64,000 nt of DNA from Alphaproteobacteria bacterium (GTDB lineage Bacteria; Pseudomonadota; Alphaproteobacteria; Rickettsiales; UBA3002): contig JAFLDD010000001.1 in assembly GCA_017302575.1 (NCBI GenBank), forward strand, positions 1,365,409 through 1,429,408. The letters run 5' to 3'. Below the pieces are notes generated by a model. That model saw only the letters and a program-made list of their open reading frames with translations. It was not told where the DNA came from and searched no databases. The translations under genes were made by a program, and so were the position numbers. Of this stretch, positions 2,493-62,935 are shown in pieces. How positions within the stretch are numbered: the stretch's first letter is position 1; the number at the start of each line of letters is the position of its first letter.

Positions 2493-2508
2493 TGGCACGT
2501 GAATTGCT
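2493..2508 (+). promoter_or_regulatory. Sigma54 (-24/-12) promoter
   Basis: TGGCACG-TGAA-TTGCT, exact match to TGGCACG-N4-TTGCW; predicted +1 near 2519. Confidence 0.75.
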
Positions 2509-2518
2509 CTAGGTTCCC

Positions 2519-2649
2519 CGTCCATTTGGCTTCTGGCCAGATGAACTGGTGCTTCGGCACCACTGGGCACTTGCCCGGTCGCCTGATTTTTCGATCGGGC
2601 GGGTAGCCTCCCTGTTATGCTCGCCGGGTGACAACGCCCGGCTTTTTTT
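2519..2649 (+). ncRNA. Candidate trans-acting sRNA with anti-SD (CCUCCCU) loop
   Basis: No ORF between the sigma54 promoter and a + strand terminator. Hairpins at 2527-2539, 2547-2562 (cUUCGg tetraloop), 2563-2578, 2581-2600 and 2599-2624 (CTCCCT loop). Confidence 0.65.
2623..2649 (+). terminator. Rho-independent terminator of the candidate sRNA
   Basis: GCCGGG-TGACAACG-CCCGGC followed by a T7 run; the U-tract exists only for + strand transcription. Confidence 0.85.
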
Positions 2650-3517
2650 ATGGGCGGCGCTCTATCTGCACAAAACGCACTTCATTGCTATCAAGCGCGC
2701 GTCGTAATTTTGTGAGTGCAGCATCTGCTTTCGTGGCCTGCTTGAGATAGGCTGGCGGCAAAGTAAGAAGGCGCTGTTCGTCTATGCGCATTCCGCGCAC
2801 CAACACATCCACACCCCATGCCAGCTCTCGCGCACCTAAAGTAATGCTGACTGGCTCGCTAGTGTGCGCAATGCGCTCACCTTTCGCATTGAATATGGTA
2901 ACAGCCGCACGAAGCGTTGCACCACAGCGCGCTGGTTCTTTCTTGTCGTTGCCTGCTACGAGCGTTACCGCCGTTGCCGATAAGCTATCTGGTGACATGC
3001 TGACGTGTTTCTTCAGGGTGAGGTGGAACTTGATTTCACTGAAGTTACGTTTTTCTGGATCCGAATAAACCTGACTGGCTGGAGCATCGAGCACGCGTTG
3101 GCCATCCAACTTCATTCCGATCAGACCTTCATTGAGCGCAGCAAAAGGTGCCTTACCCACCATGAATTCAAGGGGCTTGGACTCATCATGCGACGCGTCG
3201 AAATTAGCGCCGTCTTCACGCGTTCCACGCAGCAGCACGCTTACGTCGTCACCACACTGCACGCCTGCACCCTCACCTACACTTACTTCTTTAATGTCGG
3301 CATCACCGATATAGCTTGGGTTAATGGCGCGATACCAGCGATCACCATCGACCAGCTTGCGGAGTGATTCATAGTCTTTAGGTTGCGTTGCTTGTGAAGT
3401 AACGGGGGCTTCTTTAGGGGCGCTTTCGGGTGGCTTTTGCGACTGGTTGCCCACGTAAATAATATAGGCCAGCAGACATACAAAAATCCAACTAATCCAT
3501 TTTGGGAAAGGCATCAT
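2648..3517 (-). CDS. Membrane-anchored protein with two FKBP-type PPIase-like domains
   Basis: N-terminal TM helix, then DIKEVSVGEG...DGANFDASH...GLIGMK...QRVL and a second degenerate repeat (GVDVLVRGMRIDEQRLLTLPP). Confidence 0.75.
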   Translation of the reverse strand: MMPFPKWISWIFVCLLAYIIYVGNQSQKPPESAPKEAPVTSQATQPKDYESLRKLVDGDRWYRAINPSYIGDADIKEVSVGEGAGVQCGDDVSVLLRGTREDGANFDASHDESKPLEFMVGKAPFAALNEGLIGMKLDGQRVLDAPASQVYSDPEKRNFSEIKFHLTLKKHVSMSPDSLSATAVTLVAGNDKKEPARCGATLRAAVTIFNAKGERIAHTSEPVSITLGARELAWGVDVLVRGMRIDEQRLLTLPPAYLKQATKADAALTKLRRALDSNEVRFVQIERRP

Positions 3518-19814: not shown

Positions 19815-19847
19815 TTACGTCCTCAACGGACGTCGAAGCGTCGGTTT
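19815..19847. repeat. Palindromic intergenic repeat, family A, copy 2
   Basis: TTACGTCCTCAACGGACGTCGAAGCGTCGGTTT, near-identical to 2370-2403. Confidence 0.75.
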
Positions 19848-62919: not shown

Positions 62920-62935
62920 TGGCACGGGGCTTGCA
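62920..62935 (+). promoter_or_regulatory. Sigma54 (-24/-12) promoter
   Basis: TGGCACG-GGGC-TTGCA, exact consensus match; predicted +1 near 62946, next to ATG 62947. Confidence 0.7.

Follow-up and report, generated by a model that had tools for sequence, protein, structure and literature searches.

An unannotated small regulatory RNA (sRNA) gene of the trans-acting type, with its own terminator, almost certainly lies directly 3' of the LysR-type regulator gene lsrB in the DNA analysed here, a stretch of 64,000 nucleotides that is referred to as the window. The sRNA is very probably the local member of a class-wide, uncurated anti-Shine-Dalgarno (anti-SD) sRNA family that is found directly downstream of trxB-lsrB. 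Judged from the sequence, the unusual trait of the window sRNA is a genus-specific, exact sigma-54 promoter element at the place where relatives carry an LsrB-type binding box. The best overall reading, to which a probability of roughly 0.6 is assigned, is that of a trans-acting member of this family that would act by an anti-SD mechanism and would be transcribed from its own promoter, with sigma-54 contributing to or dominating its expression.

The window comes from an uncultured sludge bacterium and has the gene order trxB (3-596), lsrB (1449-2339, + strand) and sRNA, in agreement with an earlier note on this DNA, which had placed the RNA at an AbcR-like position downstream of lsrB. The lsrB open reading frame encodes an LsrB/VtlR-type LysR regulator of 296 aa with the Pfam domains HTH_1 and LysR_substrate. 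The sRNA is located 180 nt downstream of lsrB in the same orientation, and its U-tail is overlapped by the stop codon of a convergent gene for an FKBP-type protein (2648-3517, - strand; Pfam FKBP_C), which synteny shows to be followed by ychF. Both genes that flank the sRNA are conserved neighbours: lsrB orthologues with 46-98% identity lie beside the sRNA at most homologous loci, and the FKBP-type gene is the conserved neighbour on the downstream side.

The predicted transcript (2519-2649, + strand) is about 127-131 nt long and is supported by fold statistics and by a covariance model. Its folding energy is -66 kcal/mol (z = -5.7), and none of 200 shuffled sequences folded as well; the reverse strand of the same stretch reaches only -52.1 kcal/mol (z = -3.4). 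The architecture consists of three or four 5' hairpins (H1, a genus-specific cUUCGg hairpin, H2 and H3), followed by an unpaired seed, a rho-independent terminator and a U-tail. H1 (2520-2546) pairs CAUUUGGCU with GGCCAGAUG around a UCU loop, and its pairs are preserved by the changes at 2539 and 2540 in the variant X25. X25 was the only candidate returned by a search of RNA runs; it is of unknown type and behaves like DNA, since its 285-nt contig overruns both ends of the RNA. The runs X3, X5, X6 and X7 contained only pieces identical to the stretch, together with fragments of relatives and of the repeat copy. The complete stretch is present in the DNA runs X1, X2, X5 and X8. The cUUCGg-loop hairpin (2547-2562; UGGUGC/GCACCA) is an insertion specific to the genus, and two compensatory pairs were observed within it, namely 2550U>C with 2559A>G in X25 and 2547U>C with 2562A>G in G003/X28. 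For the region 2565-2609, the minimum-energy fold is one long helix, and the alternative is a pair of helices conserved in the family, H2 (2563-2578; CUGGGC/GCCCGG, loop ACUU) and H3 (2579-2602; UCGCCUG/CGGGCGG). The change 2577G>A in X25 converts the U-G pair 2564/2577 of H2 to U-A and would break the long minimum-energy helix. The changes 2583C>U and 2584U>C, found in three variants, keep the pairing of H3.

Downstream of H3 is the unpaired seed region (2603-2622; GUAGCCUCCCUGUUAUGCUC), which includes the anti-SD motif CCUCCCU and has a mean unpaired probability of 0.66-0.82. It is followed by the intrinsic terminator (2623-2649), in which GCCGGGUG and CGCCCGGC pair around an ACAA loop to form a hairpin at 2623-2642 that precedes U7; this terminator was called on the + strand only. 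The earlier note had described about 130 nt with short hairpins and a terminator on the + strand only, and these features are confirmed; the RNA is strongly structured, and an anti-SD CCUCCCU is exposed just before the terminator, as in SorX and MmgR. Other parts of its structural description have to be revised. The proposed hairpin exposing CUCCCU (GUAGC/GUUAU) is weak and outside the conserved structure, and 2603-2622 is best read as unpaired. The alternative pairing of 2517-2523 with 2597-2603 reflects real complementarity (7 bp including one G-U), but the pairing is in competition with that of the conserved helix H3, and transcription would have to begin 5' of the predicted +1 (2519 to about 2522). 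The 5' domain, which the earlier note had considered an extra one, is the norm, in that a 5' part made of H1, H2 and H3 is usual in the family and many relatives have one more upstream hairpin. In several relatives, the H1 loop carries a second anti-SD motif, CCUCCC or CUUCCCU, which is absent in the window sRNA.

Membership in a wider family is indicated by covariance models. The model R2, built from nine other genera with the window's own genus left out, finds 2563-2650 with 69.5 bits (E = 1.3e-14) as its sole match in 64 kb. With the model R1, one copy was found in 25 of 40 genomes at the level of the taxonomic family, representing 12 of 13 genera, and matches were obtained in 32 of 301 genomes of the order and in 138 of 401 sampled Alphaproteobacteria. 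The sRNA is single-copy and has a fixed position; at most of the fetched homologous loci it is adjoined by lsrB and/or trxB, usually co-oriented with and downstream of them. A pattern scan of metagenomes returned two loci, one of them new. The feature by which the sRNA family is recognised, an unpaired GCCUCCCUGUU that follows the last internal hairpin and precedes the terminator, is present in the window sRNA, and GUAGCCUCCCUGUUA is invariant in alignments A1, A2 and A4. Covariation with homologues, which the earlier note had named as a check, is present throughout: 95.6% of cells are paired, and all 18 modelled pairs (18 of 18) have changes on both sides, as counted on an alignment that was fitted to the model structure. 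None of 500 shuffles matched the observed values, and pairing fell to about 45% when the partners were slid against each other. All seven terminator pairs covary among 43 homologues, with 99% of cells paired.

These results also bear on whether there is an RNA gene at all, or instead a small-protein ORF or a set of stacked terminators and repeats between convergent genes. ORFs of 40-52 aa do overlap the stretch, and a repeated palindromic element is located just upstream of it. However, the overlapping ORFs are mechanical ones only, as the earlier note had implied in reporting no ORF here, and the reading frames are broken by compensatory changes and a 1-nt insertion in G003. Additionally, the seed does not vary, whereas the helices show covariation over the whole bacterial class, and the RNA occurs once per genome at one place. 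An explanation that dispenses with an RNA gene is accordingly given next to no credence.

The sequence between lsrB and the sRNA contains two hairpins that resemble terminators. The first belongs to a palindromic repeat element (2366-2403, + strand; GGACGC/GCGUCC, then UUUU), of which a second copy is present at about 19815-19847. The second (2410-2428, + strand) was identified as a terminator call and pairs ACUAAACC with GGUUUAGU; an A-to-G change in G003 leaves the affected pair as G-U, which points to a hairpin at the RNA level. Together, the two hairpins argue against plain read-through from lsrB. For the same reason, it is very improbable that the RNA is cut out of the lsrB 3' UTR, in the way that RNase E cuts SorX from the RSP_0847 transcript. 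Such an origin would suit the orientation of the RNA and its distance from lsrB, as well as the resemblance of its 3' module to SorX, itself derived from a 3' UTR (PMC6238624). Nevertheless, promoter elements immediately precede H1, at least three genomes (loci L003, L016 and L026) have the sRNA and lsrB in convergent orientation, and at L024 the sRNA follows trxB with lsrB absent. At these loci, the sRNA is therefore independent of lsrB transcription.

The earlier note had also proposed an Rfam scan, and no full-strength sRNA match was obtained: at gathering scores, only a tRNA was found in the window. The best match for the sRNA is SorX (RF02784; 23.3 bits, E = 0.002, 2562-2649), which does not reach the cut-off of 46.6, while relatives of the window sRNA reach 44.9-46.8 bits against the same cut-off. 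SorX of Rhodobacter/Cereibacter sphaeroides has a hairpin, an unpaired (A)CCUCCCUGUU and a GCCGGGC-type terminator. The 3' module of the window sRNA is likewise composed of a hairpin, an unpaired GCCUCCCUGUUAUGCUC and a terminator, and when aligned to the SorX consensus it has the corresponding layout of hairpin, unpaired CUCCCUGUU and terminator. However, SorX is 75 nt long and is released by RNase E from the 3' UTR of an OmpR-like gene (PMC6238624), whereas the window RNA carries some 85 nt of additional hairpins on its 5' side, has its own promoter elements and lies behind lsrB. Its upstream gene encodes a LysR regulator, with the two terminator-like hairpins and the promoter elements in between.

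The suhB/MmgR family (RF00519) scores 13.8 bits on the window (E = 3.3) against a cut-off of 41, and up to 36.6 bits on relatives; the membership in suhB/alpha-r8 that had been considered for the window sRNA is thus not upheld. MmgR of Sinorhizobium meliloti (alpha-r8) is similar in having the anti-SD motif CUCCCU upstream of its terminator, but it is 77 nt long and is encoded at a different locus, near suhB. A link of the window sRNA to PHB cannot be inferred from its likeness to MmgR. Both an RpoD and an RpoN signature are listed for MmgR, which NtrC induces (PMC7143759), and these signatures parallel the overlapping promoter elements of the window sRNA.

The closest parallel in position is AbcR. 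AbcR1 and AbcR2 of Agrobacterium, Sinorhizobium and Brucella (alpha-r15) occupy the same gap next to lsrB/vtlR beside trxB, and AbcR transcription depends on this neighbouring lsrB/vtlR gene (PMC8844928). AbcR and the window sRNA are both about 115-130 nt long, expose UCCC-type anti-SD motifs and end in an Hfq-type terminator tail, and most homologues in the family of the window sRNA have a LysR-type T-N11-A dyad before a sigma-70 promoter, as does PabcR1 (PMC8844928). Even so, membership in alpha-r15 finds no support, as this model gave no match at E <= 10 on 2300-2750 when 4227 Rfam families were searched. AbcR folds into three hairpins, the first of which has the motif M1 (CUCCCA) in its loop and is separated from the second by M2 (GUUCCC) (PMC5461406, PMC4152367). 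In contrast, the window RNA has four internal hairpins plus the terminator, a single seed directly before the terminator, and the loop UCU in H1 rather than an anti-SD loop; the sole GUUCCC of the sRNA region, at 2513-2518, coincides with or precedes the predicted start. The window locus further differs in carrying a sigma-54 element instead of an LsrB box. A further search for a link between the family and AbcR, in which model matches from large alphaproteobacterial genomes were scored with Rfam, returned only SorX and suhB matches below their cut-offs.

Repression by anti-SD pairing is the likely mode of action of the window sRNA. Within mRNA leaders, the unpaired CCUCCCUGUUAUGCUC would pair with Shine-Dalgarno regions and the nucleotides immediately 5' to these, and this pairing would block ribosome entry and/or trigger decay, probably with the help of Hfq, which is encoded in the genome. 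In a global duplex scan, pairing was not enriched at 1692 start regions relative to intragenic windows, with a mean of -13.2 kcal/mol in both, and only extended perfect complements are informative with respect to targets. Two leaders contain perfect complements of 13-14 nt that give duplexes of 14-15 bp, and these would be the best candidate targets. The first, GAGCAUAACAGGGA, is at genome positions 1790219-1790232, in a leader that is 97% identical in G003. The second, GGGCAUAACAGGGAG, precedes the start codon (AUG) of an ORF of 100 aa at about 39.8 kb by 8 nt and is also found in G003. The two candidate duplexes have energies of -26.8 and -34.9 kcal/mol, compared to a first percentile of -22.6 for start regions, which were scored with a seed 3 nt shorter. 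Pfam and NCBIfam returned no family for either of the two proteins. In genus g5, a 17-nt complement tracks that genus's own seed variant, UGCUUGCC. The pairing with ychF that the earlier note had put forward (9 bp with one GU) amounts to generic SD pairing, with 7 bp plus one G-U by eye.

The exact sigma-54 motif described in the earlier note, TGGCAC-N5-TTGC, is indeed present as a -24/-12 element (TGGCAC-GTGAA-TTGC, TGGCACGTGAATTGC; 2493-2507, + strand), and its predicted +1 at about 2519 coincides with the base of H1. A motif scan of the window gave two exact matches, at 2493 and 62920. The genome has a real sigma-54 regulon. It encodes RpoN (216 bits) and three activators with GAFTGA, namely FlbD, NtrC and a third response-regulator activator, as well as an NtrX that lacks GAFTGA. 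Intergenic DNA makes up only 8% of the genome but contains 15 of the 47 matches to a relaxed motif, and most of these intergenic matches are located 6-90 nt before flagellar genes or glnB/K. With the exact motif, five intergenic matches were found genome-wide, whereas the density of matches within genes predicts about 0.8; of the four besides the one at the sRNA, three are within about 45 nt of a gene start.

Sequence variation suggests that the motif at the sRNA appears under constraint. Its GG/GC core is invariant in the four variants known from the genus, and all five substitutions in the spacer miss GG, CA and TGC (P of about 0.03 by our own count). Additionally, the variant V4 has 8 changes in the 47 nt upstream and none in the 32-nt promoter. 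The element of G003, TGGCAT-N5-ATGC, has only 8 of the 10 consensus bases, and at the promoter position of the other 61 homologous loci the motif is absent, so that this genus is the only one to have it. When k-mers were compared between this promoter and the genome's other sigma-54 promoters, no shared enhancer motif emerged, and no NtrC-like site was recognisable by eye upstream. The sole candidate for an enhancer is a TTTTA(A)GTGC repeat pair at 2343-2353 and 2400-2411. On this sequence evidence, it is plausible that sigma-54 contributes to transcription of the sRNA.

The same promoter also contains a pair of sigma-70-type hexamers, read from the sequence: a -35-like TTGACT (2488-2493, + strand) and, 16 nt after it, a -10-like TAGGTT (2510-2515, + strand), with a predicted +1 at about 2521-2523. 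The TAGGTT hexamer was not called by the promoter scanner because only 3 of its 6 bases match. TTGACT-N16-TAGGTT is conserved in all four genus variants, and the sigma-54 element overlaps this sigma-70-type arrangement. In every other genus, the sRNA homologue has a sigma-70-type promoter. For instance, TTGACT with 16-nt spacing heads the promoters of several homologues in genus g9, and TAGGTT aligns with their TATGTT/TATAAC boxes. A LysR-type dyad, ATGC-N7-GCAT (T-N11-A), is exact in 31 of 63 homologous loci and absent from the window and from G003; locus L179 is an example of a homologue whose promoter carries it, and the published LsrB consensus GCAT-N3-TG-N3-T is absent upstream of the sRNA. 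In the window, X25 and G003, sequences that deviate from this consensus at one or two bases overlap the -35; they were not considered convincing.

The conservation of the hexamers here and the sigma-70-type promoters of all other genera mean that sigma-70 alone could suffice. Under such an alternative, the sRNA and its action would be the same, transcription would depend on TTGACT-N16-TAGGTT, and the sigma-54 match would be a non-functional by-product of the spacer or, at most, a site where a closed complex of sigma-54 blocks access to the sigma-70 promoter. None of the four variants departs from either hexamer, and in the closest genera clear sigma-70 promoters combine the same TTGACT with a spacing of 16 nt (TATAAC, TATGTT). 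Some related spacers, in genus g9, already hold TGGC...TGC at a spacing unsuited to sigma-54, and part of the motif may therefore be inherited; the failure to find an enhancer site and the incomplete element of G003 point in the same direction. However, chance is an unlikely source of a 10/10 match placed exactly where the right +1 results, given the genome-wide excess of exact intergenic matches and the proximity of three of the other four to gene starts. The spacer is also far more conserved than the upstream flank, with substitutions that avoid the sigma-54 core, whereas a pure spacer should drift. Furthermore, TAGGTT is a poor -10 hexamer, and the activator dyad of the relatives is missing. 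Transcription by sigma-70 alone is thus considered possible but rather unlikely.

The preferred reading is that the sRNA would be transcribed from its own promoter, the LysR-type dyad of half of the homologues being missing in this genus, and that sigma-54 would contribute to or dominate expression together with NtrC, FlbD or the third activator. As the sigma-54 element is inside the spacer of the sigma-70-like hexamers, both would start at nearly the same base. This is comparable to glmY of Escherichia coli and Salmonella, where sigma-54 and sigma-70 elements overlap before an sRNA gene and share approximately the same start (PMC3045617). The RNAs themselves are unrelated, GlmY being a protein decoy rather than an anti-SD pairing RNA, and at glmY the activator GlrR/QseF and its sites are known, whereas the activator of the window sRNA is only a candidate. 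NfeR1 of S. meliloti (alpha-r14) is another anti-SD sRNA, with a sigma-70 promoter that is activated by LsrB and bound by NtrC (PMC10746234), which shows that promoters of such sRNAs are a meeting point of LsrB-type and nitrogen-type inputs. It differs from the window sRNA in that it is not linked to lsrB and has three identical anti-SD motifs, and in that NtrC represses NfeR1, whose promoter has no sigma-54 signature. A more specific proposal, put forward tentatively and at somewhat less than even odds, is a glmY-like arrangement in an alphaproteobacterium, in which an sRNA at the AbcR position would have been uncoupled from the neighbouring redox regulator and placed under NtrC (nitrogen) or FlbD (flagellar) control, and would use a seed of 14-15 nt on two orphan leaders instead of generic SD pairing.

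To our knowledge, the LsrB/VtlR-AbcR circuit, the textbook case of an sRNA under a neighbouring regulator, has been studied only in Rhizobiales. The locus described here adds evidence that a related, Rfam-invisible sRNA is present at the same spot across much of the Alphaproteobacteria, and for genome annotation it makes a case for a new or widened Rfam family bridging SorX and AbcR. The value of this particular member is limited in that its host is uncultured and its candidate targets encode proteins of no known family. It nonetheless represents a natural experiment in promoter turnover, in which the RNA, its seed and its neighbours have been kept, while the LysR-type dyad is gone and a sigma-54 element is found inside the sigma-70 hexamers. 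If this element is functional, the promoter would be a second, independent case of the overlapping design of glmY, and an sRNA regulon would have been handed from redox to nitrogen or flagellar control with the RNA unchanged.

The stretch 2519-2649 (+) is a real, conserved sRNA gene of a known kind, belonging to a widespread but uncurated family. In BLASTN searches, another species of the genus (G003) matches it at 91% identity over its full length, and many genera retain the 3' core GGGUAGCCUCCCUGUUAUGCU and the terminator. Aligned homologues share a common plan: H1, whose loop often carries CCUCCC or CUUCCCU; H2 (CUGAGC/GCUCAG); H3 (CCGUCCGA/UCGGGCGG); and finally an invariant GUAGCCUCCCUGUUA followed by the terminator. 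Outside the window's family, the class-wide form is ...ACGU-CUCCCAG-ACGU followed by GAAGCCUCCCUGUU and a terminator, often with additional UCUCCC loops. A covariance model of these RNAs (R1) finds a single copy in 25 of 40 family genomes (12 of 13 genera), and it matches 32 of 301 genomes of the order and 138 of 401 sampled Alphaproteobacteria. As a guard against circularity, model R2 was made from nine other genera only; its sole match in the window is 2563-2650 (69.5 bits, E 1.3e-14). Additionally, in a 43-homologue alignment, itself fitted to the model, 95.6% of cells are paired and 18 of 18 pairs changed on both sides, values that 0 of 500 shuffles reach; with sliding partners, pairing is about 45%. 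Some genomes depart from the single-copy pattern. G006, a genome of the family, has two copies (C72:18-122, 97.4 bits, and C55:18091-18166, 56.3 bits); these sit at the start of one contig and possibly at the end of another, and either a gene divided during assembly or a genuine duplication may explain them. A divergent copy in G014 (locus L273; CCUCCCUGUUAAAACU plus terminator) was missed by R1. No sRNA-like sequence follows lsrB in G001 (locus L270; same genus, LsrB 80% identical) or G017 (locus L271), where the stretch may instead be a convergent gene.

For 2519-2649 the folding energy is -66 kcal/mol (z = -5.7; opposite strand, z = -3.4). Several features reported in the earlier note are present: only mechanical ORFs of 40-52 aa occur, the cUUCGg hairpin (2547-2562) and the remaining hairpins are found, and the + strand terminator is called at 2623-2642, followed by T7. 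Two of its descriptions need revision, namely the hairpin said to expose CUCCCU, which depends on weak GUAGC/GUUAU pairing outside the conserved structure and is better called an unpaired stretch, and the supposedly extra 5' domain, which is the norm of the family. The family fold (-58.5 kcal/mol) comprises H1, the cUUCGg hairpin, H2 (2563-2578), H3 (2579-2602), an unpaired seed (2603-2622), and the terminator; GCCU of the seed is buried in the minimum-energy fold of the single sequence. Further genus variants were obtained by aligning metagenome contigs to this region: one in run X25, one common to X26, X27, and X29 (V4), and one in X28 that matches G003. Compensatory changes occur among them (2550U>C with 2559A>G; 2547U>C with 2562A>G). 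Because 2577G>A converts U-G to U-A in H2 but would break the long minimum-energy helix, and changes at 2583 and 2584 leave H3 paired, the family fold, not the minimum-energy fold, is the evolutionarily supported structure.

A tblastn search with proteins of the window places most of the homologous loci that were fetched, from family to class, next to lsrB and/or trxB. The sRNA usually lies downstream of lsrB and co-oriented with it; the two genes converge in at least three genomes (L003, L016, L026), and in one genome (L024) the sRNA follows trxB, with lsrB absent. The same genomic position is held by AbcR1/2 of S. meliloti, in a gap flanked by lsrB (PMC8844928). The argument from position made earlier holds, and the window RNA is the positional counterpart of AbcR. 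The genome itself is closed (1.86 Mb, 50.8% G+C) and derives from activated-sludge and wastewater metagenomes. Gene order is trxB (3-596), a minus-strand 251-aa ORF with a Zeta-toxin/AAA-type kinase domain (593-1348), the LysR gene lsrB (1449-2339), the sRNA locus with its promoter (2493-2649), a convergent FKBP-type gene (2648-3517), and then ychF, pth, and rplY. G003 also has the Zeta-toxin-domain ORF. The fetched loci of several other genera showed none, with trxB directly adjoining lsrB. The FKBP-type stop codon (2648-2650) overlaps the sRNA U-tail (2643-2649), and as the minus strand has no U-run after the terminator, read-through of the FKBP-type mRNA would be antisense to the sRNA. A terminator-like hairpin after lsrB (2366-2403) belongs to a short palindromic repeat (TTACGTCCTCAACGGACG..GAAGCGTC.G) that recurs at about 19815-19847; the second copy differs at 4 of 28 positions and is matched by contigs in run X6.

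In comparison to known families, the Rfam scan suggested in the earlier note gave no sRNA match at gathering scores. The best permissive match was SorX (RF02784; 23.3 bits, cut-off 46.6), and because it comes from the hairpin, CUCCCUGUU, and the terminator, the 3' module is SorX-like. The suhB/MmgR model scored 13.8 bits against a cut-off of 41, so the RNA is not an alpha-r8 member. Nor is it an AbcR: alpha-r15 gave no match at all, even permissively, and the defining AbcR layout of three hairpins, with CUCCCA in the first loop and then GUUCCC (PMC5461406, PMC4152367), is absent. Relatives of the window RNA reach 44.9-46.8 bits with SorX and up to 36.6 bits with suhB. The family probably shares ancestry with SorX, and the window RNA lies outside every curated family by each family's own criteria.

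The argument for an anti-Shine-Dalgarno (SD) seed also stands. The invariant unpaired CCUCCCU would pair, by complementarity, with SD sequences; at its 3' end the RNA has a hairpin and U7, the genome encodes Hfq, and we infer that the RNA works as an anti-SD sRNA. Generic SD pairing confers no specificity. In a duplex scan of 1692 start regions, pairing was indistinguishable from windows inside genes, and ychF, proposed earlier as a target, offers generic SD pairing only. Two candidate targets are conspicuous. One is a leader at genome positions 1790219-1790232 (GAGCAUAACAGGGA, 14 bp, -26.8 kcal/mol). This leader of about 190 nt (C1:1790100-1790290; L034 1382-1572) is 97% identical between the window's genome (G000) and G003, despite different ORFs downstream, and may represent a conserved 5' UTR element or act as an RNA sponge. 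The other, near 39.8 kb, precedes a 100-aa ORF (GGGCAUAACAGGGAG, 15 bp with one G-U, -34.9 kcal/mol); 8 nt separate the end of the complement from the AUG, and G003 retains it. For either site, we estimate the chance of 8 extra specific bases beyond the SD-like AGGGA at about 1.5e-5 per site. Genus g5 has a leader with a 17-nt complement tracking its own seed variant (UGCUUGCC). The candidate target proteins belong to no known family.

Other genera have recognisable sigma-70 promoters before the sRNA. For instance, genus g9 has TTGACT-N16-TATAAC or TATGTT, and the long-form genera have TTGAAA/TTGCTT-N17-TAATAT, the spacer of which contains a TTAAT-N4-ATTAA palindrome. Palindromes of this type occupy the -35/-10 interval, an operator-like position, in L003, L004, L007, L008, L009, L013, and L167, mostly loci without the ATGC-N7-GCAT dyad. 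That dyad, a T-N11-A LysR box, occurs exactly in 31 of 63 homologous loci (about 0.005 expected per locus), an arrangement that agrees with the LsrB-dependent architecture of PabcR1 (PMC8844928). The window and G003 lack it, and of the 63 loci only these two have a sigma-54 motif correctly spaced from the RNA. The window has two exact TGGCAC-N5-TTGC matches, one of them the element reported earlier (TGGCACGTGAATTGC, 2493-2507).

This element sits within the spacer of TTGACT (2488-2493) -N16- TAGGTT (2510-2515), and the predicted starts, 2519 for sigma-54 and about 2521-2523 for sigma-70, both fall at the foot of H1. A sigma-70-type promoter is an alternative, and both hexamers are as invariant as the sigma-54 core across the genus variants; some g9 spacers likewise hold TGGC...TGC, at a spacing wrong for sigma-54. 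However, the spacer appears to be under constraint that a plain sigma-70 promoter would not require. The window and V4 share TTGACTGGCACGTGAATTGCTCTAGGTT, X25 differs only by TGGCAT for TGGCAC, and G003/X28 have TGGCATAAGAAATGCA between identical hexamers. The five substituted positions all miss GG, CA, and TGC (C(9,5)/C(16,5) = 0.03 by our count) and are those also variable in the genome's own sigma-54 promoters. V4 has 8 changes in 2440-2486 and 0 in 2487-2518, and X25 diverges by about 40% just upstream, with its single promoter change.

The genome encodes rpoN and four activator-type proteins (FlbD, NtrC, an NtrC-like response regulator, and NtrX, which lacks GAFTGA). The relaxed motif TGGCAY-N5-WTGC occurs 47 times, 15 of them intergenic (intergenic share of the genome, 8%), mostly 6-90 nt upstream of flgK/fliD-like, fliK, flgB, flgF, fliM, or glnB/K; a match 57 nt before flgE was counted as genic on a crude ORF map. 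Exact matches number 5 in intergenic sequence against about 0.8 expected from within-gene density, and therefore roughly four in five should be real. The second exact element in the window (62920-62934 (+), TGGCACGGGGCTTGC) precedes a 198-aa ORF without a Pfam family by 6-12 nt, depending on whether GTG (62941) or ATG (62947) is the start codon; so short a distance suggests that a sigma-54 transcript here would be leaderless or nearly so, perhaps as part of the flagellar regulon. No enhancer site was identified upstream of the sRNA element; the only candidate for activator binding is a pair of direct repeats, TTTTAGTGCGC (2343-2353) and TTTTAAGTGCAC (2400-2411), located roughly 175 and 119 nt upstream of the predicted start. 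G003 retains the two repeats, and G002 the first. A relevant precedent is the anti-SD sRNA MmgR, which is NtrC-induced and for which RpoD and RpoN signatures are listed (PMC7143759). Overall, the claim of sigma-54 control is partly supported by its exact motif, constrained spacer, and available rpoN and activators, and is weakened by the invariant sigma-70-like hexamers, the g9 spacers, and the enhancer result; we put the probability that sigma-54 functions at this promoter at roughly 0.6. A genus-confined sigma-54 promoter would be the sole distinctive feature of this sRNA.
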